This document shows, one piece after another, positions 17,850-51,410 of a stretch of 53,242 nt of DNA. Below the pieces are notes generated by a model. It was not told the origin of the DNA and searched no databases. It saw only the letters and a program-made list of their open reading frames with translations. The stretch's first letter is position 1. Each line of letters starts with the position of its first letter. The position numbers and the translations under genes are program-made. Source of the stretch: Nemertoderma westbladi (lineage: Eukaryota > Animalia > Xenacoelomorpha); the NCBI GenBank assembly GCA_032718475.1, contig JAUCBJ010008090.1, positions 1-53,242 of the forward strand, read 5' to 3'.

Positions 17850-18924
17850 GGACAATTCGGTCCCGGACAATTCGGTCCAGACAATTTGGTCCCGGACAAT
17901 TCGGTCCCGGACAATTCGGTCCCATTAATTTTATGTTTTGGGACCGAATTGTCCGGGACCGAATTGTCCGGATACTGACTAGGACAATTCGGTCCCAAAA
18001 CATGCATATTAATGGGACCGAATTGTCCGGGACCGAATTGTCCAGGACCGAATTATCCGGGACCGAATTGTCCGGGACCAATTTGTCCGGGACCAAATTT
18101 AATTGGTACTATATAATGGTGAATGTTCTAGAACCTTAATATATATTATTATATGGTAGCTAGTATTTTTTTTTGCTAGCTAGTATTTTTTTTTTTTAAT
18201 AAAAAAAAATTTACTTTTTTTGTTAACATTATTATTTATGGTAGCTATGGTGTTTTTATGGAGCTTGTTAATTATTTACTAGCTAGTAATAGTATGTATT
18301 TAAACTATTTAAAGCTGATTTTTTTTAATATATTGCGTAAGTATACTGTATGTGTTGTTGGTTGGATAACAAGCCTAAATTATTATCCTAGATAATAGCT
18401 GGATCTCATTCATATTTATAATATCATCAATATTGTTGGTAATTAATATAATCAGCAACAGTTTAGGCCTAATTCTGAAATATCAATGTTTTCACAGGTA
18501 TTTTTATAATTTCAAGGAAATACTAGCTAGTAAAAAAAAACACTAGCTACACCTTAATAAATAATATATAATAATGTTCTCGAACACTACCAATAACAAA
18601 AATAAAAAAAAATACAGTATTTTTAAAATTTCAAAAAGTTCTAGCAAGTATATAACACTAGCTACCATAACAAATATCTCTACTAATGTTCTAGAACATT
18701 CACCAATTTCAAAAAAGCACTAAAAAGTTGCTATCAGGAACTGGACAATTCGGTCCCGGACAATTCGGTCCCGAACAATTCGGTCCTAGGACAATTCGGT
18801 CCTAGGACAATTCGGTCCCGAACAATTCTGTCCCGGACAATTCGGTCCCATTTATTTAGTGTTTTGGGACCGAATTGTCCGGGACCGAATTGTCCGGGAC
18901 CGAATTGTCCGGACCGAATTGTCC
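17850..18924. repeat. Composite foldback element: two palindromic arrays of 15-bp GGACAATTCGGTCCC units around an AT-rich core
   Basis: Direct and inverted units at 17850-18096 and 18743-18924. Core bounded by TGGTGAATGTTCTAGAAC (18117) and GTTCTAGAACATTCACCA (18688-18705). Confidence 0.85.
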
Positions 18925-19086
18925 GGTATAAGCTAGCACTTAAAAGTGCTGTTTGGGTTGGATATATAGCAATGCCTGTCATATACTGCGTTATAAGCTA
19001 GCACTTAAAAGTGTTGTTTGGGTTGTAGGGAACCATTCTTAGTGATAACTTTATAAATTTTGATGTAGGCCTCGGCATATGACAGA

Positions 19087-19500
19087 TACTACTACTAGGT
19101 CGAGCGAACTCGGACAGTGGAAATGAGATCCTTTCAGACTTCCTGATTCTCCATAGTTGTCGCAATTTCGTTTCTCCCAAGTTCAGTATCCCTTTCAAGT
19201 TGATCTATATATGTTATGGCCGGTCGTCCACGACTTTGCTTTCCATGAGTTGGTTGCCAGAGAAGTAGATCTGGTATGACCTCGTCTTTACTTCGCCAGC
19301 AGTGCCCACTGAATTTTAATCTGCGTTCACAGAGGGTGGTTGATACAGGTGGTATTGTACCATAAAGCTCGGCGTTTGTCATGTGTTGTCTCCAGCTGAT
19401 GTTTAGGGCTGCCCTTAGTATAGTAGTCTTGTGTAGCAACCATTAATTCGTTTTCAAGTGATTTAGTCAGTGTCCAGGTCTCACCCCTGTATAAAAATAC
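19087..19500 (-). mobile_element. 5'-truncated RTE LINE (second family), 3' end with (TAG)n tail
   Basis: VFLY.GETWTLT, LRAALNISW.QH.TN.ELYG, RRLKFSGHCWR, LLLWQPTHG..RGRP. Tail TACTACTACTAG at 19087. Confidence 0.85.
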
Positions 19501-28500: not shown

Positions 28501-31500
28501 ACGCCACTAGTTTACCAGATACTGTTACGTAGACCCACGCCACTAGTTTACCAGGTTCCATACTGTTACGTCGTCCCACGCCACTAGTTTACCAGGTTCC
28601 ATATTGTTACATCGACCCACGCCACTAGTTTACCAGGTTCCATATTGTTACGTCGACCAACGCCACTAGTTTACCAGGTTCCATACTGTTACGTAGACCC
28701 ACGCCACTAGTTTACCAGGTTCCATATTGTTACGTTGTCCCACGCCACTAGTTTACCAGGTTCCATATTGTTACATCGACCCACGCCACTAGTTTACCAG
28801 GTTCCATACTGTTACGTAGACCCACGCCACTAGTTTACCAGGTTCCATATTGTTACGTCGTCCCACGCCATTAGTTTACCAGGTTCCATATTGTTACATC
28901 GACCCACGCCACTAGTTTACCAGGTTCCATATTGTTACGTCGTCCCACGCCACTAGTTTACCAGGTTCCATATTGTTACATCGACCCACGCCACTAGTTT
29001 ACCACGTTCCATACTGTTACGTAGACCCACGCCACTAGTTTACCAGGTTCCATATTGTTACGTCGTCCCACGCCACTAGTTTACCAGGTTCCATATTGTT
29101 ACATCGACCCACGCCACTAGTTTACCAGGTTCCATACTGTTACGTAGACCCACGCCACTAGTTTACCAGGTTCCATATTGTTACATCGACCCACGCCACT
29201 AGTTTACCAGGTTCCATATTGTTACGTCGTCCCACGCCACTAGTTTACCAGGTTCCATATTGTTACATCGACCCACGCCACTAGTTTACCAGGTTCCATA
29301 TTGTTACATCGACCCACGCCACTAGTTTACCAGGTTCCATATTGTTACATCGACCCACGCCACTAGTTTACCAGGTTCCATACTGTTACGTAGACCCACG
29401 CCACTAGTTTACCAGGTTCCATATTGTTACGTCGTCCCACGCCACTAGTTTACCAGGTTCCATATTGTTACGTCGTCCCACGCCACTAGTTTACCAGGTT
29501 CCATATGTTACGTCGTCCCACGCCACTAGTTTACCAGGTTCCATACTGTTACGTAGACCCACGCCACTAGTTTACCAGGTTCCATATTGTTACGTCGTCC
29601 CACGCCACTAGTTTACCAGGTTCCATACTGTTACGTAGACCCACGCCACTAGTTTACCAGGTTCCATATTGTTACATCGACCCACGCCACTAGTTTACCA
29701 GGTTCCATATTGTTACGTCGTCCCACGCCACTAGTTTACCAGGTTCCATATGTTACGTCGTCCCACGCCACTAGTTTACCAGGTTCCATATGTTACGTCG
29801 TCCCACGCCACTAGTTTACCAGGTTCCATATTGTTACGTCGTCCCACGCCACTAGTTTACCAGGTTCCATATTGTTACGTCGTCCCACGCTACTAGTTTA
29901 CCAGGTTCCATATTGTTACGTCGTCCCACGCCACTAGTTTACCAGGTTCCATATTGTTACGTCGTCCCACGCCACTAGTTTACCAGGTTCCATATTGTTA
30001 CGTCGTCCCACGCTACTAGTTTACCAGGTTCCATATTGTTACGTCGTCCCACGCCACTAGTTTACCAGGTTCCATATGTTACGTCGTCCCACGCTACTAG
30101 TTTACCAGGTTCCATATTGTTACGTCGTCCCACGCCACTAGTTTACCAGGTTCCATATTGTTACGTCGTCCCACGCCACTAGTTTACCAGGTTCCATATT
30201 GTTACGTCGTCCCACGCCACTAGTTTACCAGGTTCCATATTGTTACGTCGTCCCACGCTACTAGTTTACCAGGTTCCATATTGTTACGTCGTCCCACGCC
30301 ACTAGTTTACTAGGTTTCATATTGTTACGTAGACCCACGCCACTACTTTACCAGGTTCCATATTGTTACGTCGTCCCACGCCACTAGTTTACCAGGTTCC
30401 ATATTGTTACGTCGTCCCACGCCACTAGTTTACCAGGTTCCATATTGTTACGTCGTCCCACGCCACTAGTTTACCAGGTTCCATATGTTACGTCGTCCCA
30501 CGCCACTAGTTTACCAGGTTCCATATTGTTACGTCGTCCCACGCTACTAGTTTACCAGGTTCCATATTGTTACGTCGTCCCACGCCACTAGTTTACCAGG
30601 TTCCATATTGTTACGTCGTCCCACGCCACTAGTTTACCAGGTTCCATATTGTTACATCAACCCACGCTACTAGTTTACCAGGTTCCATATTGTTACGTCG
30701 TCCCACGCCACTAGTTTACCAGGTTCCATATGTTACGTCGTCCCACGCCACTAGTTTACCAGGTTCCATATTGTTACGTAGACCCACGCCACTAGTTTAC
30801 CAGGTTCCATATTATTACGTCGTCCCACGCTACTAGTTTACCAGGTTCCATATTGTTACGTCGTCCCACGCTACTAGTTTACCAGGTTCCATATTGTTAC
30901 GTCGTCCCACGCCACTAGTTTACCAGGTTCCATATGTTACGTCGTCCCACGCCACTAGTTTACCAGGTTCCATATTGTTACGTCGTCCCACGCCACTAGT
31001 TTACCAGGTTCCATATGTTACGTCGTCCCACGCCACTAGTTTACCAGATACTGTTACGTAGACCCACGCCACTAGTTTACCAGGTTCCATACTGTTACGT
31101 CGTCCCACGCCACTAGTTTACCAGGTTCCATATTGTTACATCGACCCACGCCACTAGTTTACCAGGTTCCATATTGTTACGTCGACCAACGCCACTAGTT
31201 TACCAGGTTCCATATTGTTACGTCGTCCCACGCCACTAGTTTACCAGGTTCCATATTGTTACGTCGTCCCACGCCACTAGTTTACCAGGTTCCATATTGT
31301 TACGTCGACCAACGCCACTAGTTTACCAGGTTCCATATTGTTACGTCGTCCCACGCCACTAGTTTACCAGGTTCCATATTGTTACGTAAACCCACGCCAC
31401 TAGTTTACCAGGTTCTATATAGTTACGTAGACCCACGCCACTAGTTTACCAGGTTCCATATTGTTACGTAGACCCACGCCACTAGTTTACCAGGTTCCAT

Positions 31501-31622
31501 ATTGTTACGTCATCCCACGCCACTAGTTTACCAGGTTCCATATTGTTACGTAGACCCACGCCACTAGTTTACCAGGTTCCATATTGTTACGTCGTCCCAC
31601 GCCACTAGTTTACCAGGTTCCA
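19501..31622. repeat. Satellite array, 41-bp monomer ACTAGTTTACCAGGTTCCATATTGTTACGTCGTCCCACGCC, ~295 copies
   Basis: Uninterrupted head-to-tail monomers with three main variants and no unique spacers. Confidence 0.99.
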
Positions 31623-31925
31623 CAGGCCCGTATGGTGATCATAATATCTGGGGGGGCAGAGGCCAAATCTGGGGGGGCAAACCCATAACTGGGATTTGGG
31701 GAGCATACAACAAAGTGAGAGTTAATTTAGTATATAAAGTATAATCAATATTGTTGAAAGGTGTGTGGGGCAAGCCACGAAGTTGGCGGAGTCTTGGCGA
31801 ATTGACACTGTTAAGGAGAATGTCAATAATGGCAAATAGTTGTTGACATTTGACATTAAATCTTTGTCAGATTTAAAGCTGTCGAATTGAAAATTTGTAG
31901 GCATAAATATGTTTTTATTTTTTTA

Positions 31926-32408
31926 TTTGATTTGGGGATGACAGGAAATATTCCCACAGGCACATGGCCAGTTCCCGCCCTTGGTGCAAGTGATTCATAT
32001 TCCCCATTTTTGTGATGATCAACTTCTATTATTCCTACTGCATTGATATTTATGCTCAATAGAACCGATATGACCGATTTAGTTGTTGTAGACACCTTCA
32101 AAACAAGCATAGAGCGAATAGTTTTTGAGATATTGCAGATAATGTGAAGTGCGATAATGCGAATTAGCGCCTTGATGCGATATTGACAAATACCTGACAA
32201 ATATCTCAAAAACTATTCGCTCTATGCTTGTTTTGAAGGTGTCTACTACAACTAAATCGGTCATTGCGGTTCTAAATGAGCATAATATCAATGCAGTAGG
32301 AATACTAGAAGTTGATCATCACAAAAATGGGGAATATGACTCACTTGCACCAAGGGCGGGAACTTGCCATGTGCCTGTGGGAATATTTCCTGTCATTCCC
32401 AAATCAAA
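31926..32408. repeat. Long inverted repeat, ~209-bp arms with 65-bp spacer
   Basis: 31926-32134 is the near reverse complement of 32200-32408, as reflected in the mirror ORFs 31856..32209(-) and 32224..32469(+). Confidence 0.93.
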
Positions 32409-33110
32409 ATTTTGGTATCTATTGAAGTTTGGGCTCATTTTATTACATCTGATTTGCGAACTGAGTTGAAATTCAAAAAAGTTTTTCGTTGATATTGAAT
32501 GGTACAGGTACAAAACACGATGAGGTGAAGTTTGACCTCAAAGTCAATATGTGTAGGCCCCTATAAATTGTAAAATTGAATAGACCCCCTTGCAAATTTG
32601 TACATTTTTGTTTTTCTAATTGGAGGTAGGCTACTATAAAGTAATAAATGTCACAAAATTTCGAGATAAAATATCAATGTGTGATAAAATTGTGTAAGTT
32701 TAAATCTTCGATGGGTCAATAATGACCCCAAAGAGAGCACAAGGGTTAAATCGACTGCAGTTTTGCAAGCCTCTGGCTGGTGTAAAGTGATCAAGGGCAT
32801 CTGCTTAGATTTTGCGTATTTTTCTTTCAAGATTACACTTACATAAGTTTATATTACGTGCTGCGCGAAGGATCCACTTCAGGTATAATATGGTTAAGGT
32901 TAAGTTACAACAAATTATAGCTATGGATACCAGCGCAATCAACCCTCAGCGCCAAGCCTTTTAGCTGCAAGCTGGCTCCCAAACTACAAACAATTAGACA
33001 ATGGGTCAACAACAAACAACCCCTCCACCCTGGTAGCCAATGAGAGAACCTTAGAGCTTTCGAGTATTTTTAGTAATTACAGGTAGGTAGGTATATTAAT
33101 GTCATGTAGT

Positions 33111-33171
33111 ATTATAGAATTGGACCAAATGGAATGGTTCCCCACCATTCCATTTGGTCCAATTCTATAAT
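33111..33171. repeat. Perfect 28-bp-stem palindrome with 5-nt loop
   Basis: ATTATAGAATTGGACCAAATGGAATGGT-TCCCC-ACCATTCCATTTGGTCCAATTCTATAAT. Confidence 0.95.
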
Positions 33172-33369
33172 GGGTCAGTGTGTAACGTGTAAAGTGTGTA
33201 TAACGGTCAGTGGGCAGGAGTATGTGAATCCAATTTTATTGATTACCAACAATATTATTATTAATTAATTGTGAATAAGACGAGTGAACAATACATGTCT
33301 GGGGGGGGGGCAGTGGGTCTTGTCTGGGGGGGCAGTGCCCCCAAAGCCCCCCCGCACGATACGGGCCTG

Positions 33370-33440
33370 AGGTTCCATATTGTTACGTCGACCCACGCCA
33401 CTAGTTTACCAGGTTCCATATTGTTACGTGGTCCCACGAC
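33370..33440. repeat. Terminal ~1.7 monomers of the 41-bp satellite
   Basis: Array resumes in register after the hAT-like element and decays at GTGGTCCCACGAC. Confidence 0.95.
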
Positions 33441-34479
33441 ACCTATAAGTCTCTACACGCCCTGTAAGCGTCGTCCTTCCATCGTAGCTGCAATGAACCT
33501 GTAAGATAATATTATATGAAATTATAATTTGTGTCGATAGAACGCGAGCTGTACAGAGTAGATCTACAGCAAATAAACCAATAATAATAATAACATAAAA
33601 TAATATCATTAGTGTTATGTTAAGTTATTATTATTATAGCAGGTGTTGTTAGTGGTATTACTATTACGTAGTATTCGTCTCCAAACTTCGTTGGGAGATT
33701 GTTAATCCGCCGTCTCTTAATTCACACATCGAAGATTGGGACTCATAATCCCTCGGATTAATAGATTGCAAATTCTCACGAAAATCAATAGATATAAACA
33801 AACAGTTAATACAAACAAAGTTCAAACCACGATGGGGGGGGGGGGGGGGGGTTATATTGCAAGGGGCCGGTTCTTAAAATACTAAAGTACTAAGTACTCA
33901 CGGCAGTACCGATGCCGTAATCGAACGACCATCGGGTTCACTTTGTTGGATCCGCCGAATAACACATCGCATGTCGATCAGCCCACTCGCCAACATCTCA
34001 CCCGTTGGTAGGCCGGCGAACTGGTTCACTCGTGTATGTGCGGATCCGACTTATCTAACAAAGAAAACCAACAGTTTAATACGAAGATCCTCGAATAAAC
34101 TTCCTACCGGTAACGCAGTAACAGTAGCTGACAACCATACAAACAACCAGCTAATAACTACCGTACTCGGCGTACTGCCGTATTCGGGAAATTAAACTCA
34201 CCGATTTCATCGAGATCGCTCCTGTTTATCAATCGATTATACTCAGTAGAGGCATCCAATATTACCAACAACCATCCAAAAACTACAGAAAGTGCGCGGG
34301 AACTCCCAGCCAGCTAGCTCCACACCAGCAGAGACTTGACCAATAATGGGCAGGATTAAATTTGTAATCAATAATTGTGCCGTTTAATTACGTTTAGATC
34401 AATTAAAGACACATTTATTAAAGCAAATCACTTGAACTAATTAACACTAGAACGGCCAAATCTTATCACTACCAATTAA

Positions 34480-35331: not shown

Positions 35332-35891
35332 TTAAGCCGCGTACATCAATTGATGTAAATGCACGCTTTGCATCGAAGCACTTACCTACCAAATGGAATG
35401 CGTTTTTATTGAAGTGTGCATCGTGTATAATGCGCATATGATCAACACACCAACTACGTGTATATTGCACGAAAATATTATTATAACTACCGGTATGCCC
35501 ATATTATTATAAATATTATTACTATGCCCAGCCCCAGCCCAAATAACAGATTCAAAGATCCTTTTGCAATCTGCCACTTTTTACTATCCGTGTGGCATCT
35601 TTGTATATCAACCTAGTTTTATACTTGGTAGCCTGCATACAGCCTATATGCCTAGGCCTATACATATGCCAAGGTTTGTACATGTATATCAACCTAGGTT
35701 TATAGGCACTTTTTCGGTATTCCCCCGCATTTTTACTGTTTGTAATATACAAATGCTACCGGTACTGAATTTTAACAACAATATTTCAATATTTAGTGCT
35801 TCCTCGCATTCCCTTGGGGTTTCGGTTAGTTTTTTGGTTAAGGTTCATTGGTCAGGCCGTAACCGTAATTAAAAGTGTTATATAACCCTAA

Positions 35892-36265
35892 GGGGCCGTC
35901 CAAGTATGACGTCAGCACTTTAGGGTGGGGAGGGGGGTTGGGAAAATCTGATGACGTGCTGATGAGGGGAGGGGAGGGGGTCAGCCAAAATCTGACGTCA
36001 GCATTCTCATTTATAGGTGCTAGAAGAGATATAGCAGAAGAGTAAATAGCTTGCCTATTTTAATTGTTCGAAGCCCTAGAAGGCCCGTAGCACAACCTTC
36101 TGTTTCAGTTACCAGTCACCATATTTCAGTGATTAGCACGCGAAAATTTTTTTAATCTGATTTAGGGGAGGGGGTTGTCAACGCCTATCTGATGACATCT
36201 GATTTAGGGGAGGGAGGGGGTCAACATTTTGGAGAAAAGTGCAGACGTCATACTTGGACGGCCCC
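35892..36265. mobile_element. PIF/Harbinger-like MITE
   Basis: TIRs GGGGCCGTCCAAGTATGACGTC / GACGTCATACTTGGACGGCCCC with TAA TSD (35889-35891 and 36266-36268). Confidence 0.9.
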
Positions 36266-36356
36266 TAACCCTAAGTCATGACGCTCTAATTTAAGAAATT
36301 TTGTGGAATTTCGGACATATTGCTATTTAGCCCGATTTGGGCCGACACACTGTAAC

Positions 36357-39300
36357 CTGAAAGAATTGCTCAACTACATCGACGCCTTACGGCAAATTCT
36401 TCAGCTAAAGAAATGTATCAAATGCAGTTGAAGAAATTTATTAGCAAGGGATATGCGGAGCGAGTACCGGAAGAAACACCTATAACTGAGAGAACGTATT
36501 ATTTAACTCACCATTACGTTCCCAAACCCGGTAAACCTCACGAAGTACGAGTAGTGTTTGACGGCTCCGCCCTCTACATGGGTCAATCCCTTAATTCCGA
36601 ATTGTTACCCGGACCCAACTTACTCCAATCCTTGTTGGGAATACTCTTAAGATTAAGACAATATTCCGTTGCTTTCGCCTCAGATATAGAAGGCATGTTC
36701 TTACAAGTCAAGGCACTGGATAGGGATCGAGATAGCCTACGATTTCTGTGGTGGCCTGAAGGAGACCTCAACCAGAAACCGGTAGAGTACTGGATGACCA
36801 TCCAGGCTTTTGGAATAATCTCAAGCCCTTCAAACGCCTGTTCAGTGGTGCGTACCACTGCGGATGACAATCGGGAAGCCTTCTCTAAAGAGGTGATCGA
36901 CAATATCAAACGAGACATATACATGGACGATAATCTAAAGTCCCTTCCATCAGTCAAAGAAGCCATTGATGTCGCTAAAGGAACGGTAGAGTGCTTAAGA
37001 AGAGGTGGATTTCGATTAACTAAATTCACCAGCAACTCCCGTGAGTTTCTGGAATCGATCCCGGTGGAAGATCGAGGAGCGAAAGACTTAGACCTAATCA
37101 AAGATGATCTTCCAGAAACTAAGATACTTGGTTTGAAATGGGACACAGAGAAGGATATCCTGTTTTTCCAGCTAAAACAGCGAGATAATCCAGTTCGAAC
37201 TAAACGGATTTGTTTAAGTATCCTGAGCACTTATTTCGATCCATTGGGATTTATTAGCCCAGTTATATTGATTGCTTGGAGTTTAGTACAACAAATGTGG
37301 CTTGAAAACCACTCATGGGACGATCCACTTAAGGGAGAATTATTAAAGAAGTGGATGAAATGGGAAGATTCTTTACCAGCCATCGAGAACTTTATAATTT
37401 CCCGTTCATATTTTGGTCATGTTCTCCCTACGTATTCCTATCAACTCCATGTGTTTGGAGACGCTAGCGATATGGGAATAGGTATAGTAGCCTACCTAAG
37501 AGTGGAAACTCCAGATGGAATCAAGGTTGCCTTGGTTACCTCTAAGGCATTGATAAACAACAAGTTGAAGGTTCCTCGAGCGGAGTTAAAGGCGGCTCTA
37601 TACGCTACAGCCATCGGTCGGAATGTAACAGAACAGATCGATTATCCATTGGAGAAAACTGTCTATTGGACCGACGCTTTACTCGTGTTGGAGTATATAA
37701 CCAATGAAGTCTGTCAGTTCAGCGTCTTCGTTACCAACAGAGTAGCCATTATACTTAGTCGCACGACGATGGACCAATGGAGACATTGCCCCGGAACGAT
37801 CAATCCAGCCGACATCGCCTCCAGGGGAGCAACTCCACAAGAACTGGTAGATACTCCAGACTGGTTAGGTGGACCCGACTTCCTGTACAAAGAAGAAGAA
37901 GAATGGCCTCCTCATCTTACTACAGCAGAGATTAGACAGGCCAAGGGAGCGGAGAAAGTTAAACCTAAAACTCGGGCGAGTAAATCGAAGTTATTTAAAC
38001 CTATGGTAGACCTGTCCGTACTACATACTTCCGGAGACGACGCTTTGGATCAGAAACCCACAGCCGTAAACAAGCAGGTTATGGAAATCCGTGAGAAGGA
38101 TTGGAAATCTGGAATACCAGACGTTTCGCAAGGACTCTCACCTCTCCTGCAGAGAGCGATACATCACTACAGTTCCTGGAATCGGCTCTGTAAAGCCGTT
38201 ACATATTTGAAACGATGTTTTCATCATCACTACTCCGGGACAAAGACCAATAGTGATACAGCTCCACTGACATCGGTGCAGGTCCATGTTGCTAAAGATC
38301 TTCCCAAATATAAGATACCCGACAGGTTTCTGAAGGAGAAGATCAGTTATCAGGAGCATGAAGAAACCAACAAACAGATGCTGAGACTCCTGCAATGCTA
38401 TGAGGATTCCGATAAGTATTTCCTGTTGTTGAGAAATCCACAGATGCGCTTAAGGGATCGTTTCTCTAGAACAATGATAGATGGGTTAATACGTGTTGGA
38501 GGAAGATTAACGAATGCTCCATTATCCTTTGACACTAAGTTTCCCATACTCATTAGAAATCTTGAAATACAAGTCAAGATGATTGTAGATGTTCACAGCA
38601 AACTTTATCATGCTGGTATTGAACGAGTTCTTAGCGAAATTCGAACTCGCTATTATTTCTACAAACCCCGTAGAGCTCTGAACCAAGTTCTTAGGAACTG
38701 CATACCCTGTAGGAAAGCGTTCAGTAGGCCTTTAACACAGCGAGAGGCAGAATTACCTAGGGAAAGAGTAAGCTTCTATGAACCACCCTTTACTAATACC
38801 GGTGTAGATTTATTTGGCCCTATTGAAGTGTATCGTGCTAGAACTATAGTCAAGAGATGGTGTGTCATCTTTGTTTGTATGACTTGTAGAGCTATCCATC
38901 TCGATATGGTGAACGACTTGTCTACCAACAGCTTCCTATTAAGCTTACGACGACAGATCGCTCGCTTTGGAACTAGTAACACAATGAGATCTGATAAGGG
39001 AACGAACTTCATTGGTGCCAACAATGAAATCAAAGCTTACGTCAAGGATTGGAACCAAAGACAGGTGGATGATCAGCTAAGAGTAACAGCGTCTAGCTGG
39101 ACCTTCAATGCCGCCGACGCCCCTTGGTGGGGAGGAAGTTGGGAGAGATTGATTAGAAGTGTGAAGACTGCATTTCACGTTATAGTGCCTTGCCGCGCGT
39201 ATCTCACAGACGAACTTTTGCGGACGTTAATGGAGGAAATCGCCGCCTATCTCAACGAGAGACCGCTTATGCCAGTCTCATTGAGTCCCGATTCCCTGGA

Positions 39301-39772
39301 AGCGCTAACACCCGCGCATTTCCTACTGAAGAAACCTGTAGCCATGCTCCCACAATCGGAAATCACAGACGGAGACGAATACTGCCGGCAAACTTGGCAA
39401 CTTATGCAGTTGTTATCCCGTCGTTTCGCTGACCATTTCGAGAAACATTATCTGCCCACACTACAACTTCGAACTAAGTGGTTTGTGCAGCAAGAAAACG
39501 TCAGCGCTGGAGACATGATCCTTATTGTAGATTCAGATCTTCCACGTAAGCGGTGGCAGACAGGTCGTATCATCGAGACTCACATCTCGGATGACGGTTT
39601 GGTGCGATTGGTAGAACTCGTCGTCATGCGACGTAACTTCAAGAAACCAGGAATTGTCTTTGAGACACAGCAGCTCAATCGCCCAGTTGGTCGTTTGTGT
39701 TTACTGGAAAGAGACAGAGACTCTCCGGAAACTATGGAAGACAAGATACTCTTCCCACGACCACCTCCCTAA
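36357..39772 (+). CDS. pol: BEL/Pao LTR retrotransposon Pol (RT, RNase H/Pao A17 region, integrase), 5'-truncated; gag and protease absent
   Basis: YYLTHH, RVVFDGSA, SLN..L.PGPNL, DIEGMFLQV, YMDD, LHVFGDAS, YWTD, NPADIASRG, H..LYH..C..C, GVDLFGP, SDKGTNF, GGSWERL and W.TGRI. The frame is open upstream of ATG 36413 to ~36357. Confidence 0.95.
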
Positions 39773-40338
39773 TCCAACAAACATCTAGGGACTCCCCAGC
39801 TTAGTAGCATCTGGAGTGGGTGTATGACCATATTATTTTATATTCTTATTATTTTATACTTATGTATGCATTATTATGTAATTTTATTATAATCGTTTTA
39901 TTTAATTTTATTTAGTAGAATGTTATTTAGCGATTATTTAGTAGATTAGTGCAATATATATTTGCGTTTATTACTTAATTACTTATATATTATATATTTA
40001 GTGCGACGGCGAGAAATAATTCTTTTTTCTCTTTCCTTACTGTCCGTATTACATTACAAATACGTAACTACAGTAAGATGAAATGTCGGTACTTATTAAA
40101 GTACAATAAAGCTCCTACTATATTCAAGTATTATTGGTAGGCAGAGTATTAGGAATGCAAAGTTCAGATCCTCGTGTCTCGGCTAAGCCAAGCTCTGGGT
40201 AGACCTTGGAAACGACTTGCCTCTTCACACTGACATTGCTTCGTGCGATATTGCTCTCCTACCGTATATTAAATAATACATATAGTAGCGTGATGTCCCT
40301 TTAACAGTAGCGTATAACGCAAAATAAATCTGTTAAAC

Positions 40339-40620
40339 CCTTTGACCATCTGCAATTCTAGTCGATTAAGATATCGCGGCACCCACCGATATACTTGAAA
40401 GACAAATTTCTAGAATCAGTGGTTAACGTCCCCAGACAAATTCTGGAATAAACTGGTGCCCATCCTAAATATTAACTTTTAATATTTATAAAATCTGTCA
40501 AAATTTAGATCCTTTGAAATTCTAGTCGATTAAGATATCGTAGCACTTACCGATACTCTTAAAAGAGACAAATTTCCTAGAATCAAGGATCCCAGTCCCC
40601 AGACATGTTCTGGAATAAAA
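40339..40620 (+). repeat. Two ~110-bp diverged direct repeats between pol and the downstream ORF
   Basis: AATTCTAGTCGATTAAGATATCG..CCGATA..GACAAATTTC..TAGAATCA..GTCCCCAGACA..TTCTGGAATAAA occurs twice. Confidence 0.85.
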
Positions 40621-41438
40621 TTGTATCTATTTAACATTAAATAATAAAATTTACGGGAATAAATTTAAATTCATATTTTAATGAATTCCATAAATTGTCA
40701 TTTTATACAATTTATAACATTCCCAAAATTCCTTTAATTAATAGATCATGGGAGCGGAGATTCACCCTATTAAGTGTATTAGTGTGCGAGAATCTCCAAT
40801 ATATAGTCAATAGCCGATAAAATTCATAAAATCATGTATAAAGAGGATATTGACAATTAAAGAATTACTATTAAATAGCATCCCAGATCTGTATGCATGA
40901 GAATTACCCTAATTCTACCGCTAGCTTTCCATAATGTCACCATGGCAACAACCACGCTAGAATTAGAAGCGAGTTAAAAGGAACAATAGAAGGCTTGACC
41001 CATTGAATAGCATAGGGAATAAATAGCGCACTGCTAGTATCCAAGGATACATAATAATAAAGTGACATTCTGGAAGGCACTGACTAACGGACAAATGGCC
41101 CGAATGTGTACAGTTTGTAACAGTTGTGTTGAATTTGTGCGTTATAGGTGAATGTTACTACTAATGTGTGTTTACAGTAGCGAGTCGCAATTGTGAAAGT
41201 AGCCCTAACTCTCCAGAAAGAACCTGAAGTACATCTAAGCCTTTGGGACGGACAGTGGAGTGACTTGTGCCGGTTATCGTGGTCGTTGTGTAGCTACATC
41301 GTTGGCGAAAACACAGCGACGACGGTACATTGGCGCTGAGGATCTTGCACTGTCCGGGGGCAAAAGAGGGGTAGGCAGCGACGCCCGCTAGCCTAAAATA
41401 TAAACTCATTATAATATTGATAGACTCATATAGCAGAT

Positions 41439-41708
41439 ATGACTGAGTTGATAGAAGATTATCTTGGTATCAGGGAGCGATATACTCTACCTTTACAAGC
41501 GTTCGTCGATAGCTTGATACACGGTGATGTTGGTCCAACTACTACGGAGGACGATGGGCGTTATATCGAACCGCCAATGTCCCAGGAGCAACTTACGCGT
41601 GAATTGGACTATAGAAAATTCACCGCTCGCTATACGCATCGTAATGGTAAGTATATGGACTTCTTAACTACTGGTCATCCTATCGATTTACACGATATGG
41701 AAATGTAG
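41439..41708 (+). CDS. 89-aa ORF, probable N-terminus of the downstream long ORF split by a -1 frameshift
   Basis: Starts with ATG and overlaps the long frame, which is open from 41651 and has no ATG before 41789. Confidence 0.5.
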   Translation: MTELIEDYLGIRERYTLPLQAFVDSLIHGDVGPTTTEDDGRYIEPPMSQEQLTRELDYRKFTARYTHRNGKYMDFLTTGHPIDLHDMEM

Positions 41709-41770
41709 AAACATATACTACACAATATTTAAAGTATAGAGATCTACCTAATGCTAGCGAATGCGCTACC

Positions 41771-43954
41771 TTGTGGCATCCAGTGGGAATGACTCTCGAA
41801 AACGCCACTAAAGAGTGGAATGAGACTCTTGACGTTATCGAGATGTATTACGATAACGAAGGTAGCGTTCCGGTTGGAGAACTGGGAACTACGCGAATGA
41901 TACACATACGAGGACTCGCTGGTTCTACCCACGTATTTACTCGAGCGTGTTCCGATGTGATTGATTATTCTTTTGAGACTCTTACTGAGACACAAAAGAA
42001 ACTCCGACATGGACAATTCGAACTCGCGCAGCGTTATGTCACCGACACCGAGCGCAAACCAGCCATGGGCATCGATGGATCGATGTTACCCCAGCCCGTG
42101 CTCGAGATGTTGTTTAACGAAAGAATCCTTAAAATCGGCTCAGCTGTTTATGGAGATCTCCAAAACAACTTTCGGAACATGGAGAACATTCCTTATCCTT
42201 TCGTTGATACTCAGCTGATTGCTCCCTGGGCAGAAGGCAGAGGTTTCTTCCGCACTATGTATGCTAATACACCCAGCGGCATTACTAAAGTACAACGAAC
42301 CTCCATCGGACATCTTGCCTTTCAAGAATACGGATGGAATTTCAAGGTTGGAAATCCTACCAATTACCAACAAGTATATGGAGATCATTATTCTCGTTTA
42401 TACTTTGATGGACCATTGACCGCATCTGGTGCCGTATATAGCTTTATGAGTGTTCCACTTCGTCTCTCCTTAGCTATATACACGATCTTTGAAAACGCAG
42501 CACTTGCCGGTTGGCTAGCCGATGTGTGCAGTCGTACCATACGCGCCCATCCCTTAATACTTGGAACCAAACTCGCTAAACTAGATGAACACAATAAATT
42601 CATCCGCTTCGAATGTTTCAGGCGCTTTCTGACTCCGTTCCGTAACGTTGATAGTCAGTTCAAGGACCGCGCTCTGACCAAACTCAGCCTAAGAGACTCA
42701 GCTGCGGAGAAGCTAAACAGCGCGGGATTTGCCCTTTTCCAGGACGTTTGTATACAGAACTTACATTCATCTGTTATACAAAGACCCCGAATACCCACGG
42801 GCTATTCTGTCGTGGAAGTTCAGACAGTGGGTCCGCTCGCGGAGACAGCCGCACCTACCTCAGCTATGCAATTGAAAGACGAACCAATATGCTTAGAATC
42901 TGAGGCGATTCAGCCTACAGCGCCCCGGAGCAGCGATAACGACTACGTCTTAGAGTGGTATCAAGGTCCACAATGTCTCACTGCATACGATTATCGACAC
43001 GCCAACTATGTTTCTCGAAAACATTGTCGATTATGCGCATCGAGAGACCATTTCACCCCTATGGACTCAGACGTACCCTGCTCCTATTTCCACGAACAAC
43101 CGATGATGGAGATCTATTGTGCGTACTGCAGACTTAATAACTCGCATATTTTTGCAGTCTGCCCCCAATTTATGACTCAATGCCACCACTGTCAACTAAA
43201 AGGACATGCCAGTTATGATTGCCCTTTTAATCGCGATTTAGAAAGCGTAGATGAGATGATCACCCTGCGCTACATCCGGGCTTGGGAAGTGAACGTGGAT
43301 TTACATTGTGAGTCCCGCCATCGCTATTACCCTGGACGCGCTTACGAGGGAGTTTACGCGTTCCATCCTTATCTATTCGCGTCTGTTGAACAGAAAACAC
43401 GCACACCGAGTTACGAATTAATGAAGCGTGTTGGTGAGTGTATTTCCACCAAATTTGTGCGAAAATATCTCAGGAACGTCAATCCTAACGATATTACTTC
43501 ATACCATTTGATCAATTTCATCCGTCAAGACCCTGAGTATGGCGATTTATTTGTCAACTCACACCCTGAGTTACAAGAAGTATCTCGACGGCCCTACGAA
43601 TATCGAGCCCGAGAACGCGAACTGGAAAGAACCATTAAACCGAGAAAGTTTCTCACCACTCACGGTCTGCCTACCGCTAGTGTCCAGACGACTCGTCAGG
43701 GACCCGTAGGAGCTGCTGTCCTCAGACGCGCTCTAAAGGCCGTTAGACCTCGATCCACTGAAGTTGATATCAATCAACCAGGTACTTCGACTGGTGGATA
43801 CACCGACCGTAATCCTAAACCTTCTGATGCAATTGTATTGCACCCTTCACCCAGGAGTTACAGCCCTCCTAGTAAAGTGGCTCGCCCCAAAGAGAAAAGG
43901 ACTCTTGCTAGCCTCAAAAAACTGCGTAAACGCCGTCCGCGCAAGAAAGACTAA
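41771..43954 (+). CDS. Accessory protein: DEDDy (WRN/EXD/Mut-7-like) 3'-5' exonuclease-like domain, three CCHC zinc knuckles and a basic tail
   Basis: Uninterrupted 727 codons. Exonuclease-like motifs YYDNEG, LPQPVLEMLFNERILKIGSAVYGD, FVDTQLIA, SIGHLAFQEYGWNFK and PLTASGAVY. Knuckles CRLC..H..C, CAYC..H..C and CHHCQLKGHASYDC. C-terminal KKLRKRRPRKKD. Confidence 0.75.
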   Translation: MWHPVGMTLENATKEWNETLDVIEMYYDNEGSVPVGELGTTRMIHIRGLAGSTHVFTRACSDVIDYSFETLTETQKKLRHGQFELAQRYVTDTERKPAMGIDGSMLPQPVLEMLFNERILKIGSAVYGDLQNNFRNMENIPYPFVDTQLIAPWAEGRGFFRTMYANTPSGITKVQRTSIGHLAFQEYGWNFKVGNPTNYQQVYGDHYSRLYFDGPLTASGAVYSFMSVPLRLSLAIYTIFENAALAGWLADVCSRTIRAHPLILGTKLAKLDEHNKFIRFECFRRFLTPFRNVDSQFKDRALTKLSLRDSAAEKLNSAGFALFQDVCIQNLHSSVIQRPRIPTGYSVVEVQTVGPLAETAAPTSAMQLKDEPICLESEAIQPTAPRSSDNDYVLEWYQGPQCLTAYDYRHANYVSRKHCRLCASRDHFTPMDSDVPCSYFHEQPMMEIYCAYCRLNNSHIFAVCPQFMTQCHHCQLKGHASYDCPFNRDLESVDEMITLRYIRAWEVNVDLHCESRHRYYPGRAYEGVYAFHPYLFASVEQKTRTPSYELMKRVGECISTKFVRKYLRNVNPNDITSYHLINFIRQDPEYGDLFVNSHPELQEVSRRPYEYRARERELERTIKPRKFLTTHGLPTASVQTTRQGPVGAAVLRRALKAVRPRSTEVDINQPGTSTGGYTDRNPKPSDAIVLHPSPRSYSPPSKVARPKEKRTLASLKKLRKRRPRKKD

Positions 43955-44032
43955 CTGTTTAGAGTATTTTTATATTTTAGAAACTGTGATTTTTTATATT
44001 TTATAGAATTAAATCCCATTTTCTGGGAGCGG

Positions 44033-45224
44033 TGTAAAAGCTTTTGCGGGATTAGCTAGTCATTTTTTCCCCGCAAAGTACTCTGTAGATGTTTTAACGG
44101 ACATAAAAGCCGTTTCCTTACTGTACCGGTATTTTAGTGGACATAAAAAGCTATTCTTCTGTATGTGTACTTTGGTGGACATAACTAGCAATCTTATGCC
44201 GCAATACGCGATAATACTCTCTACACAGTGTAGTTCAGATTACGACATCTATCAGCTGATTTGCTGTACTCGTGGCATTTTTCTTTGTTCAGGCCCACTC
44301 TGTGCAATCACTCGACCAATCAGCGTGATTTTCAGTTTATTACACAGAGGCCTCCGGGAAATCGCGCAATGCATTATGGTTTATGTTTACCTTTTTCCTT
44401 ATGCCACGAAGACTGGCTTTGGAATCTTTGTGTTTTCAGGCTTTAGCCCAACATTAGTAGGCTTAATTATAGAACGTATATCTGTTATCATATCAATCCG
44501 GACCAAATCATACTTACTTATTTGATCATACATTTTTCCTAATTATATCTTAACATTAATACTGCTATTTACTGTCGGTTATTCATTATATCAGTTGATG
44601 GAATATTATATTTGGAATATCGATAAATAATAACAAACCCTCAATCTTCTTGATATACTGAAGGTAAGAGAGACCGGTTACATATAACGATTGCGACTTA
44701 CATTAAAGTGGTTTTGAAGTAAGTCTAATGCTATTTCATAGGCACTACGAGTATCAGTCGTTGTTCTCTTTATATGTGACTAAAATTAGTGAAGGTCGGC
44801 AGATTGGTGTGCAGTATTGTGCAGTAGTGTGTATGATTGATACTGATAACAAAGCATCTCCTAAAGAATGCGCCATATACGTGAATCTATAGCCATCCAG
44901 TTGTGTCTAGTTTAAGTCATAGCTCTGTTTACATATTTAGAGCGCCACGTCCTAAAGGAACTGTTAATATTTCCCGAAGGTGAATAATATTTGTCAGAGA
45001 TTATATATTACGAACAGTCGAATAATACAGTAGGCTTACACCGCAATAAGATTAAGCCCACGAATCCAGTCTCCCGGGTATATCCAGCGGGTGAATGGTC
45101 GCGCATAGACTGGCTTCGGCTAATGTAGTGTATCCAATACTCGTCATAGGCTAAAGTCGATTTATTATCTAGAAGACATCCTAATTTGGCAGGTTAAACT
45201 GCTAAAGGTCTGAAAGCGCGAACA
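44033..45224 (+). repeat. Candidate 3' LTR (~1.19 kb)
   Basis: Purine-rich GGGAGCGG directly before TGT at 44033. Non-coding, and ends CGAACA exactly where piggyBac coding sequence begins. No second copy in the window to confirm. Confidence 0.55.
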
Positions 45225-45226
45225 CT

Positions 45227-45847
45227 TATGTCCCTAATCCATATCTTACGATCGATGAACAACTCTTTCCATGCAAGACCAAGTGCCGCTTTACCCAATA
45301 TATGCCGGCCAAACCCGATAAGTTTGGGATCAAATTTTGGCTCCTAGCTGAAGTTGATTCAAAGTATTGTTGTGGCATGCGCCCATACTTGGGAAAAGAT
45401 GATACCCGAACTGAAGGGCTGGGAAGCCACGTTGTGAAGGAGCTGATGTGGCCACACCTGCGCAAAGGTTATAACGTCTGCACCGACAACTTCTTCACAA
45501 ACTTGGATATCGCACGGTATCTGAAAGACAATAAAACATCAATGCTGGGCACAGTAAGAGCCAATCGGCGAGAACTGCCTCCAGCTACAGTCACAGCCCT
45601 ATATTCCAGCAATTTTAAATCCAATACTGGCATCCAGTTGGTGGAATACAGAGCAAAGCGCACGAAGACCGTATGGATGTTGTCGTCGCTACACGCTGGC
45701 ATTGTCACTGGACCGGAGCCCAAATGCAAACCCCAATCTGTCATTGACTACAACAGCAACAAATGCGGCGTGGACATGCTGGATGCGATGGCAAGGCGAC
45801 GTACAACCAAATGTGGTACACGGAGGTGGCCTATGGCAGTGTTTTAC
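45227..45847 (+). pseudogene. piggyBac transposase catalytic core fragment (PGBD4-like)
   Basis: TIDEQL, YMPAKPDKFGIKFW, TDNFFT, GTVRANRRELP, YNSNKCGVDMLD and TRRWPM. Truncated on both sides. Confidence 0.92.
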
Positions 45848-46560
45848 TGCTGAGCTTGTTACTAACGTCCATCCATTTCCAATGTCATTGTACTTCATGG
45901 CAGTGTCTTCATGACAAATCCGATGTTCTTGGATGCAGATGATGTCAATGTTATATTCCATTGCCAGAGCAACCATGTCACCCTGTTTGCTCTGTGCTTT
46001 CAGTGTGCGTGCGTTCATTGTAGCAATCTTTAGTGTCTTTTTACATTTCAACAGGTTGGTTCTTCTTTCTTCTCTGTCTTCTGTTCCAGTAGCCAATTTA
46101 TCGACCCCAGCCTGGTGTACCACTGAGGGATGCGGTCCTTGTTGACCCGGGCGATGACCGAGCCTGTATTTCTCCTGGAGGGTTCTCATACTCATATCTT
46201 TCAGTTGCGGAAGTAAACCGCTTGTGGTCGCAACTCCTACAAGCGTCTTCGCAGTAGGTCGCTGTTGGTTGATTACCTTCCGCCGACCTTGTCAGCATGT
46301 CTAGCCGTTGGTTGATTACCTTCCGCCTATCCATGGCCTACAGCCCTGCTGCCGACTGTAGGGGTCCATTTGTTACACCCTGAACCAAGTGTGCCTCCTG
46401 GGTAAGGTTACCTAACACTGGTAGAGGAGCATCCAGTATAGACAGGGCGGGGCTTGTATCATCTCTAATGCAGATGCGTATCAATGGTGCCCTAGGCGCT
46501 ATAGCCCTCAATGACTTATTTAGTTGACGGGGCTGAACCAACCCACTCTTGATCAAATAA
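45842..46560 (-). mobile_element. 5' end of an RTE LINE (5' UTR plus N-terminal AP endonuclease), 3'-truncated
   Basis: ORF from 46195 reads LLKCKKTLKIATMNARTL, IDIICIQEHR and GWTLVTSSA. GC-rich UTR has a 21-bp direct repeat (46264-46284/46307-46327). The 5' boundary is approximate. Confidence 0.82.
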
Positions 46561-48732: not shown

Positions 48733-50152
48733 ATGATGGAACAAGATAATCTCGATGAGATGTTTGTTTCACTGAATGATGATTTAGTAACTACAGACGA
48801 TGATTTCATCAATGATGAAGACCTTCTGCGGCTCTCTCAAGAAATAGAAGATAAAAAACTATATTACCACCAATAAAAATAGCAACACAAACGAGGCAAC
48901 AAAGAGTGCAGTAGCAGCGCTAAAAAATTACCTGCGTCTCATCAAATGCACCAAAGAAATAACATGTATGAGTATGGAGGAACTAGCATACCACACAAAT
49001 AACATGTATGAGTATGGAGGAACTAGCATACCACACAAATAATTTCATTAAGAGGTACAAAAAAAAATCAGGAGAAAAACTGGAAACCTCGACCCTTAGG
49101 AGTTAATTCTATGGCCTATTACGTCATTACAAGGAACTATGTATTGGGAATGTTCTCGAGCTGAAAGAATTTAAAGACACAAAGGCGGTGTTTCGTGCCA
49201 GGCTGTCGCAGCTCAAGGCCGATGGCAAGGGTAATAACCCAAATGCCAGCGACCCAATGGATTCCCATGATTTTTCCATCATGAAGTCAAGTGGGCAGCT
49301 GGGACATTCTACCCCACAGGTGTTGCAAAACACATGTACGTTGTTTGAACAACACAATTTGGTTGCCGCCCTGGGTTAGAAATGAGAAACATGATGGTTG
49401 GTGATGTGAAGAAGTACTTTGACCAAAAGAAGGGTCTTCACTTCCTACAACTCAAAGAGCGAAATACTAAAACCAGAAAGGGTTCCACACCAGGTAGAGT
49501 GCTTATCCCAAAGGCGTACAAGGTACCTACAGACCGTGATGTATATCCGGTGTTCTTGCATGAAAAATACATGGAGAAACGGTACCCCAACGGGAAAATA
49601 ATAGATGAAGACCCCTATTGGGTTCGCCCGAAACCCAATCAACCTAAGGATGGCGCATCATGGTTTTGCAACCAGCCCGTTGGGACGAATACCTTCGGTC
49701 AGATAATGAAAGATGTTGTAAAATGCTCTGGAATCAACACGGATGGTTGCAAGATCACCCCGATGTCATATAGGAAGACAACTGCTCAAGCTATTGTTGA
49801 CCAACATTTACCAGCGACATATGCCCAGAAACAACTTGGCCATTCTAGTTTGGCCATGACATCCCGTTACATCGATGGTATTGGAACGGCACAGTACAGT
49901 GTGAGCAATGCCCTCTCAAACGTTATATCTGGCGGCAAAATTGCCTTAGATGCGGATAACAATACCACGACATTGCCTCAAGCTATGATGGCTTCCACCG
50001 CATCGACCACTACTACTTCCTTATCAACGACTACCAAGGTACAGTGTACTGATGGCTCTATAGAGAGGACCATGGACTCCATTTTTAGCAACAATAAGTT
50101 CTTTGGGAACGTGAACGTATACGATGGATCGCACCAGAATACTAATAATTAG
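48733..50152 (+). pseudogene. Crypton-type (DUF3504-like) tyrosine recombinase, disrupted
   Basis: Reconstructed NSNT...TKSAV, LKADGKGN.PNAS, GQLG.STPQ.LQNT, FGCRPGLEMR...GD, ERNTKTRKG, WFCNQPVG.NT, KITPMSYRKT, LGHSS and SRY. Lesions: 40-bp duplication (48961-49040), stop at ~49104, frameshifts at ~48870 and ~49345. Confidence 0.82.
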
Positions 50153-50403
50153 CTGCTGATACATCAACTATATATATATATATATTTATATACACACTAT
50201 GCTAAATTTTAAATATCCAGTTATAACTGCCATTCATCGGATTGCTCCGCATCCCATTTCTCTATCGGAGTTAATTACACACAAACAAATCAAGTTAAGG
50301 GAATGTTATAACACCAGGAGACCATCAAGTACCCGTAGAGGAGGCAGAATATAACGAAGCGAGAGGGCCAATAAACACAGACAGCTTGTTATATGAATGC
50401 TAC

Positions 50404-51092
50404 TACTACTACTACTACTAGGATCGGCATGCTGCATTGCAGCTGCATTTTTAAGAATGCTGTGCCGGCTTGTCAACAAAATTACACCGCCACAACTCCC
50501 TATCACCCATGACATTTGCTAGATCATCCGCATCTTTAAGGCCAGTGTCCTTTAAGATGCGTCTCAAGAAAGTCATGGGCTGTCCACCATGCTTATTCAC
50601 TCCATGAGGCTGCCAAAGTACAAGATTATGCACTGGCTGGTCCTCATGGCGAAAGCAATGTCCTGCAAAGCGGAGGCGATTTTGTTCTAGTGTCAAGCTT
50701 GGGGGAACCAATGAGACACCTCCAATGTTATATAGTGTCTGGTTGGAGATGTGTGCATTGCACTTGACACAATGAACCCGGCGTAGCATTCTTGTGAATG
50801 TGCCATCCAGAGATTTGGTGTCCTCAGCAGTTAGAGCCCAGCATGGACTCCCGTAGAGGAGTACTGGAACTACTGCTGCTCTAAATAATCGGACCTTAAG
50901 TTTCCGATTAATTCTCGGTGACTTCCAAATCCTGGAAAGCCTATTCAAGGCTGCCCATGCCTTTCCCTTACGTATTCGAAGGTCCTCACCTGACTTCCGG
51001 ATCCATGATCCCAGGTAACAGAAGTCGTCCACATGCTCAAGCATACCATCCTTTGAGCTTATGCTCATCCGATCAGAGACTTGCTGAGGACT
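50404..51092 (-). mobile_element. 5'-truncated RTE copy, same family as 3928-5790, with TSD
   Basis: Near-identical to ~3928-4610, (TAG)n tail, TSD TGAATGCTAC at 50394-50403 and 51093-51102. Confidence 0.95.
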
Positions 51093-51410
51093 TGAATGCT
51101 ACAAAGTGCACAGTGGGGGGTTACGCGAGTTTGAGTTGGGTTTGAGTAAACCTGACAGGTTTGAGTTAGTAAGAGTGAGGTAAGAGGTAAAGGTACCCAG
51201 TTTGAGAAACGGTATCTAGAATGAGATAGGGACTGTAGGTATATGTTTCGTTTCGTAGCTTATGTCTGTTGGTCGTCAGACCTGCGAGCTAGACGAATAA
51301 TATCGTCCTTTTATGACTGATTTGAGTAAAGTTCTGTCATTGAAACTTATATACTCTATGGGCTGTTTGCCTGATTTAGATACATGCAGTAATGTACACG
51401 GCCCTTACAT

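Follow-up and report, generated by a model that had tools for sequence, protein, structure and literature searches.

The stretch analysed here, hereafter the window, comprises the 53,242 nucleotides of contig JAUCBJ010008090.1 (positions 1 to 53,242, forward strand; GenBank assembly GCA_032718475.1) from the xenacoelomorph Nemertoderma westbladi. It contains a BEL/Pao long terminal repeat (LTR) retrotransposon in which the pol gene is followed by a 2-kb spacer, an accessory open reading frame (ORF) and a terminal LTR. The product of this ORF (P0001) has an exonuclease-like N-terminal half, zinc knuckles and a basic C-terminal tail, and one homologue (P0002). A preliminary description, made from the sequence alone, had read it as a DEDDy exonuclease-like domain joined to three CCHC knuckles and placed where an env gene might be expected.

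An accessory gene in a BEL/Pao repeat

The pol frame (36356–39772, + strand) matches Peptidase_A17 (E = 2e-35), DUF5641 (E = 1.8e-19) and Integrase_H2C2 (E = 1.9e-7) in Pfam, and its Pao-type reverse transcriptase (RT), RNase H and integrase follow one another in the domain order of BEL/Pao elements (Belpaoviridae). It is 5'-truncated in the window, and none of 65 further upstream frames of at least 65 residues matched gag or protease. Just left of the truncation lie a MITE-like (miniature inverted-repeat transposable element-like) sequence with 31-bp inverted ends (35891–36266) and, abutting pol, a possible transposon end (36331–36352) whose partner was not found in the window. The accessory ORF (41771–43954, + strand) sits within an open frame at 41651–43954 that spans 767 residues from stop to stop and gives 727 residues counted from a TTG codon at 41771, or 721 from the first ATG at 41789; the chance of meeting no stop across 727 codons is about 1e-16. 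The frame and the Pfam matches bear out the preliminary description of an intact 727-codon ORF some 2 kb behind a BEL/Pao pol on the same strand, and all of the peptide motifs that it quoted are found in the translation.

We compared the locus with contigs from four (X1, X3, X4 and X5) of seven sequencing runs, for which the summed depth of contigs per bin is not a copy number and cannot rank genes. In run X1, all 25 bins between 36234 and 45408 have summed depths of 1.7e5–1.3e6, against 77 and 73 in the flanking bins 35500–35866 and 45409–45775, and run X3 is similar. Single X3 contigs reach depths of 6736 on pol and 7329 on the ORF, both at about 81% identity to the window, compared with 23–37 for low-depth contigs. 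Pol, spacer, ORF and LTR therefore appear in the reads as one continuous high-depth repeat, which links the ORF to the high-copy BEL unit. The only point in favour of a single-copy host exon adjoining a BEL remnant is that the sole homologue has no known context, and this explanation is by now largely refuted and extremely improbable. Depth over the ORF exceeds that of the low-depth bins on either side more than 1000-fold and runs unbroken into pol and LTR, and each site is covered by many different contigs. Loose contig ends at 41701, 42876, 43082, 43520 and 43797 mark places where further copies drop below 80% identity. A deleted form of pol, in which a joint at 37959–39676 skips 1716 bases, is present in all four runs and is likely a non-autonomous derivative.

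The polypurine tract (PPT) and TGT that had been noted downstream of the ORF are present at 44025–44035. The terminal PPT (44025–44032) leads directly into TGTA at 44033, the start of a 1192-bp LTR (TGT...ACA, 44033–45224; LTR B) which has the form of a BEL/Pao 3' LTR, namely 0.2–1.2 kb with TG...CA ends following a PPT of about 10 nt. Both borders coincide with loose contig ends, at 44032 in run X4 and at 45224 in run X5: two X4 contigs part from the window just ahead of 44033 and continue into different flanks, two X5 contigs diverge after 45224, and low-depth piggyBac contigs (X1, X3) start matching exactly at 45225. These breaks identify 44033–45224 as the true terminal LTR. The adjoining sequence (45225–45853) is a piggyBac-like transposase relic (PF13843, E = 6e-38) into which the element has apparently inserted. 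In X1, X3 and X5, some copies match only the initial 15 bases of the terminal LTR (to 44047) and would represent a sister subfamily with another U3.

Differences between copies are predominantly silent. Among the best-supported 40 of 609 substitutions, 33 lie within the accessory ORF and 24 of these are silent, against a share of 0.33 expected for neutral transitions (p = 5e-6), including 11 of the 15 in residues 1–260; for pol, the corresponding figure is a similar 14 of 21, drawn from the best-supported 40 of 2227, and neither list is a random sample. Because 24 of the 33 listed between-copy differences are silent, the comparison of copies that had been proposed as a dN/dS-type check points to purifying selection, and we regard the accessory ORF as almost certainly a real, selected gene.

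A DEDDy exonuclease-like core followed by zinc knuckles

The exonuclease likeness, recognised by eye across the N-terminal half, is supported statistically for about residues 80–152 (42008–42226), which carry the ExoII aspartate D129 and the D146-x-Q strand; beyond this region it was not confirmed. From 240 loci collected with a DNA pattern for the ExoIII motif, we kept the 149 with a full domain, bacterial and viral, and built a hidden Markov model (HMM) from them. This model matched residues 62–152 of the accessory protein at 12.3–12.8 bits (E = 3–5e-6 as a single comparison), a score reached by 0 of 1000 shuffles, while the reversed protein and pol scored below zero. The match covers the ExoII region, away from the motif used for selecting the loci. 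An hhalign comparison gave 87.8% over 72 columns, against 0.2% for the reversed control, and the two NCBIfam matches are both to RNase D (residues 108–152, E = 0.0064 and 0.046). A search of ESM Atlas features with residues 7–330 assigned 26 of 30 matches to PF01612 (best 0.91, 161 shared features), with three unnamed fungal clusters in the top ranks. The aspartate corresponding to D129 (D123 in alignment A4) is present in every one of 72 sequences aligned. The profile tests with their controls support a DnaQ-like fold over about residues 80–152, and the Atlas and NCBIfam matches agree with it. On these comparisons the protein very probably has a DEDDy fold.

The zinc-knuckle region (43025–43222) holds two knuckles that fit the spacing CX2CX3-5HX4C (residues 450–464 and 471–484) and a first one that is degenerate (C419-C422-H427-x9-C437), so that two of the three CCHC knuckles originally described stand as such. 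Fourteen of the last 27 residues are lysine or arginine, and the basic tail (43910–43951) may contain a nuclear localisation signal. No membrane segment is present (maximum 19-residue Kyte-Doolittle hydropathy, KD19, 1.38), and hence the protein is not env-like; nor did it match any env family in Pfam.

P0002, a protein of 648 residues, was the sole match to the accessory protein among 1.84 billion representatives (E = 6e-6) and is a singleton on a 9449-bp ENA contig. It has the same order of exonuclease and then knuckles, and the two proteins share both the exonuclease core and the knuckle region, which align with scores reached by 0 of 1000 shuffles in each case. It also matches the HIV nucleocapsid (NC; E = 1e-4), and its top Atlas feature match, a lead only, is a cluster from Euglenozoa combining PF01612 with PF00098 (0.86). 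A search of 5.8 billion proteins, confined to near-length matches, returned nothing for the accessory protein or for alignment A1, and only P0002 itself for P0002. Scans for related loci found none among viral candidates (0 of 125, 0 of 60 and 0 of 3) or genomes (0 of 40) and one among metagenomes (1 of 424), and searches of PHROGs, phages and plasmids were empty or weak. The metagenomic locus (L001) carries a short exonuclease-like piece at 700–1088, split over two frames, that matches the ExoII region of the ORF and is possibly part of an intron-bearing eukaryotic gene.

Candidate catalytic residues

For ExoI, the candidate D28-x-E30 (41852–41860) competes with an alternative register at S67/E69 (41969–41977). 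In an ungapped scan the segment DVIDYSFET (residues 62–70) scored best (p = 0.056), and YYDNEG, the ExoI of the preliminary description, fell outside the top four. The best HMM, MAFFT and AlphaFold register likewise puts S67-F-E69 at ExoI, with a serine replacing the first aspartate. The D28/E30 register keeps an H-x3-L-x-G spacing in common with P0002 (score 14, not significant), and the N-terminal alignment of the two proteins has p = 0.87. The ExoIII proposed earlier, PLT....VY with Y223, has Ser227 at the acid position and is probably misplaced; the preferred candidate, P229-L...Y237...E241 (42455–42493), pairs better with P0002, where the spacing is the same (P221...Y229...E233). In this register Y237-x3-E241 places a glutamate at the ExoIII acid position, as in P0002 (p = 0.15 alone). 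Both the ExoI and the ExoIII placements fall short of significance. The motif set is likely D-E-D-E. We give the protein a slightly better than even chance of being catalytically active within the family.

AlphaFold, run on the accessory protein and P0002 with 70 DEDDy rows added, gave a model with a pLDDT of 55, which matches Nibbler, RNase D, Egalitarian, TbRND (Trypanosoma brucei RNase D), EXD1 and WRN at tied Z scores of 9–10; because the model was built on a DEDDy alignment, these matches are circular and carry little weight. Egalitarian and EXD1 are, together with Maelstrom, the type of protein to be expected if the accessory product were a catalytically dead RNA-binding adaptor that chaperones or transports the element's RNA. 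Their presence among these modelled, circular matches, the serine in the best ExoI register and the E at ExoIII (or S in the register of the preliminary description) in place of D would fit such an adaptor. D129 and D146-x-Q are kept, however, the D28/E30 register shares its spacing with P0002 (though not significantly), and P0002 has acids at all four catalytic positions (D62, E64, D130 and E233), so that we think a dead adaptor unlikely, at perhaps one chance in four.

A probable internal LTR upstream of the gene

The ORF does lie downstream of pol on the + strand, but the label 'env position' is too simple, since the 2-kb spacer between them has LTR hallmarks at both ends and a primer-like site. 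The likely internal LTR (39821–41329, 1509 bp, TGTA...TACA; module A) is non-coding, with a longest ATG ORF of 43 residues. Its TGTA is directly preceded by a PPT-like tract (39810–39820, 48 nt after the pol stop) that resembles the terminal PPT: positions 39810–39824 are within 3 edits of 44022–44036. The + strand of the window has three sites this close, and such a mimic is expected 0.077 times per shuffled 7.6 kb, which corresponds to about 0.001 for the 100 nt that follow pol. One base after the closing TACA (41329), which mirrors the opening TGTA, stands a TGGCG primer-binding-site (PBS)-like sequence (41331–41343). The pattern TACA-N0-3-TGGYG occurs only here on the + strand of the window and is expected 0.038 times per shuffled spacer. 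We presume the primer-like site to resemble the 3' end of tRNA-Ser. No tRNA gene was found in the window, and Rfam gave 0 matches in 36000–46500; for Belpaoviridae, ICTV lists tRNA-Arg or tRNA-Gly as primers. A diverged X4 contig (41162–41573, depth 558) bridges the end of A, the primer-like site and the small ORF described below.

Within A, a TATAAA (40837–40842) is a candidate promoter box, weak alone in this AT-rich region, and an AATAAA with a GT-rich downstream element (41056–41061) is a candidate poly(A) signal. The latter is followed by 15 TG/GT dinucleotides, whereas none of the 12 further A[AT]TAAA sites of the module has more than 8, and this best poly(A) context lies 270 nt before the end of A. 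An approximately 165-bp tandem duplication (40326–40653, 75% identical) also lies inside A, as in LTR enhancer repeats. Module A and LTR B show no similarity (p = 0.2; against reversed B, p = 0.91; no blastn match), and no R-like block common to the two was found. By its motifs, chosen post hoc, the spacer has the PPT and PBS that border the internal LTR of three-LTR complexes, whereas the likeness of inner to outer LTRs seen in such complexes is absent. Insertion of A as a solo LTR is unlikely because no trace of a target-site duplication flanks it.

Downstream of the primer-like site, a small ORF (41439–41708, ATG at 41439) is likely the first exon of the accessory gene, judged by its splice sites and variants. 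The only GTAAGT donor in 39700–41800 lies at 41647, giving a predicted first coding exon at 41439–41646, and joining it to acceptors at 41708 or 41783 is in frame in both cases (817 or 792 residues). Four of the six listed variants in the small ORF are silent (p = 0.10). Among the joints listed for the runs, of which X5 may be RNA, none falls at this predicted intron, an outcome that speaks neither for nor against splicing.

From these signals we consider module A probably LTR-derived. With the spacer having the appearance of a second LTR complete at both ends, the ORF would likely be the cargo of its own PBS–ORF–PPT unit and, standing behind a likely internal LTR, may be made from its own RNA. 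The whole element would then read B – gag-pol – PPT – A – PBS – ORF – PPT – B. Each round of copying makes the terminal LTRs identical but leaves an inner one untouched (PMC1950507), and in an old three-LTR complex the middle LTR could thus diverge and survive as a promoter. In such an origin the middle LTR would have stopped being homogenised and been retained as promoter, and possibly poly(A) site, of the cargo, whose RNA would start in A and be spliced at 41647.

The simplest competing layout, a plain third ORF behind an ordinary long untranslated region (UTR) with an internal promoter, treats the PPT, TGTA, TACA and PBS as coincidental. In its favour, A and B lack similarity, no loose end occurs at 39820 or 41329 among 24 of the 2627, and AT-rich DNA often contains TATA and AATAAA by chance (A alone has 13 A[AT]TAAA); against it stand independent signals that flank A on both sides, correctly ordered and oriented (PPT about 0.001, TACA-PBS 0.038, and the poly(A) context), and we rate it as unlikely. 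Slightly less probable again is that the ORF is part of a distinct, non-autonomous LTR element, A being the 3' LTR of an ordinary A–gag-pol–A element and the window a recombinant of two families. Complexes with a shared LTR are known (PMC1950507; excerpts of PMC4079214 and PMC11899658), and summed depth in X4 is far higher at the ORF ends than at pol, although depth cannot rank genes. The junctions pol–A, A–ORF and ORF–B all lie in high-depth sequence, however, the latter two being multi-copy; a unit whose two ends differ would be unable to replicate by itself; and no joint from the terminal PPT to A, or from the end of B to the PBS, was found among 15 of the 128 joints. As a weak test, none of these 15 joints or of the 24 loose ends places A behind the ORF or B in front of it, or shows A as a terminus. 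The odds of these layouts are separate from those of the functions discussed below.

A further and still less probable arrangement, which we would put at around one chance in seven, is a segmented LTR retrotransposon in which B–gag-pol–A–ORF–B is copied from two co-packaged RNAs and the TbRND-like nuclease of the second segment disarms small-RNA silencing. This would require the poly(A) signal, PPT and PBS associated with A all to be functional. One RNA would run from B to the poly(A) signal of A and the other from A to that of B; each would have its own PBS and PPT and unlike ends, such that only the co-packaged pair would be reverse-transcribed, with two cross-jumps rebuilding the unit.

Other repeats in the window

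To the left of the element, a 41-bp satellite occupies 19500–31622 (296.5 copies, 94%), with a further 73-bp piece at 33370–33442; the insert that breaks it (31623–33369) has inverted ends seen by eye and an inner fold-back at 31926–32408. At 17850–18926, a 15-bp unit is repeated in arrays whose orientation alternates, so forming several inverted repeats. LINE pieces (RVT_1, DUF6451, endonuclease) are found at 3916–5766, 14131–14667 and 50400–51093, with 694 bp duplicated at 98.4% between those at 3916 and 50400. To the right, the frame at 49349–50152 contains a tyrosine recombinase and DUF3504, and we take it to be Crypton-like.

Discussion

Extra DEDDy ORFs have a precedent, correctly named in the preliminary description, in the ORF3s of bdelloid rotifer Juno and Vesta elements (Ty3/gypsy) and of Athena/Terminons (Rodriguez et al. 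2017, excerpts of PMC5408684; excerpts of PMC6431247 and PMC5718144). As excerpted, PMC5408684 describes these ORFs as likewise lying downstream of pol, lacking membrane segments and usually being expressed from separate, spliced messages. The present case differs in its BEL/Pao host, CCHC knuckles, basic tail, purifying selection and the LTR-like module with PBS upstream; the rotifer motif is DEED and here it is likely D-E-D-E, a comparison made with the rotifer proteins as described (excerpt of PMC5408684). A second parallel is TbRND, in which a DEDD exonuclease is again followed by a CCHC array, and whose four fingers bind the RNA that the DEDD domain trims, including small guide RNAs (excerpt of PMC7797062). 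TbRND is a cellular mitochondrial enzyme with its four fingers near the nuclease (same excerpt), whereas here two or three fingers follow a linker of about 160 residues in a protein encoded by a transposable element, and the sequences of the two proteins do not match significantly.

Internal LTRs between PPT and PBS are likewise found in three-LTR complexes (Sabot and Schulman 2007, PMC1950507), in Cassandra (excerpt of PMC4079214) and in tandem LTR retrotransposons (excerpt of PMC11899658). There the LTRs are alike and the internal regions similar, whereas here inner and outer LTRs are unrelated and the second internal region is one selected enzyme gene. Within BEL/Pao, the element shares its pol domain order, 1.2-kb LTR and short PPT with roo, Tas, Atlas and the BELs bearing a chuvirus glycoprotein (PMC8742986; excerpts of PMC13524379 and PMC3118150). 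In the texts consulted, third ORFs described for BELs are env-like (PMC8742986; excerpts of PMC3118150, PMC13524379 and PMC2774666), and the gene described here is not a fusogen. The word 'exonuclease' is absent (0 occurrences) from the main text of both PMC3118150 and PMC13524379. Our literature search, conducted largely outside subscription papers and Repbase, found no BEL with an exonuclease and no LTR element with two RNAs, in agreement with the preliminary description on the first point; nuclease cargo on animal LTR elements was found only in rotifer Ty3/gypsy and Terminon elements.

We propose, with a probability of roughly 0.42 for the account as a whole, that the accessory gene encodes a selected RNase D-like 3'-5' exoribonuclease with RNA-binding knuckles, driven by module A and directed against small-RNA silencing. 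In the manner of TbRND, the protein would grip the 3' end of a single-stranded RNA through its knuckles during trimming by the nuclease domain; its basic tail would bring it to the nucleus. The benefit to the element would be weaker piRNA or siRNA silencing through trimming of the guide RNAs or of their 3' tails. Small RNAs as the target of the nuclease are a tentative assignment, somewhat short of an even chance. An action against small RNAs is favoured because selection keeps the gene in a selfish element, separate from Gag-Pol.

The protein might alternatively be a packaged enzyme that trims DNA or primer ends during reverse transcription, such as non-templated 3' bases or the primer tRNA. 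DEDDy enzymes also act on single-stranded DNA; the DEDDy domains carried by Dada DNA transposons have been proposed to process 3' ends (excerpt of PMC3706591); and the CCHC knuckles resemble nucleocapsid, as the match of P0002 to HIV NC illustrates. Most BEL elements replicate without such a gene, however (PMC8742986; excerpt of PMC3118150), and the gene is separate from Gag-Pol, with RNase D as its closest family matches, which makes such a role improbable.

A number of observations weigh against the proposed exoribonuclease and its expression from A. PF01612 itself had no Pfam match in the accessory protein at E up to 1 (only the knuckles matched, weakly), a PDB sequence search with the protein and alignment A2 returned nothing relevant, and AlphaFold on the accessory protein and P0002 alone gave a failed model (pLDDT 30); the serine in the best-scoring ExoI register, the non-significant outer motifs and the circularity of the fold matches count on the same side. 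Other copies are four codons longer at 41847/41848, just before D28, and so differ near the first catalytic motif. Single high-depth X4 contigs have lost or gained one base at 42925 and 43224, some copies at low depth have deletions within the ORF, and the silent share derives from best-supported variants. Among the contigs listed, none spans pol to the terminal LTR. The 5' LTR, gag and protease lie outside the window, and with the 5' end of the element missing neither layout is proven; the odds for an internal LTR are rough because its motifs were chosen after being seen. Finally, variation in the rotifer ORF3s shows no departure from neutrality, and their authors, in the excerpted text, weighed a silencing role only in the pro-silencing direction (excerpt of PMC5408684).

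A BEL/Pao element with a selected RNase D and knuckle protein would, together with the rotifer cases, mean that enzymes of this class have been recruited more than once. Should both primer sites be functional, the RNA genome of this retroelement would be in two parts, an arrangement of which we found none described. The unrelated internal LTR and the primer site that accompanies it suggest a route by which cargo genes may be gained and expressed, and the accessory gene itself would be a testable candidate for a transposon-encoded anti-silencing factor.

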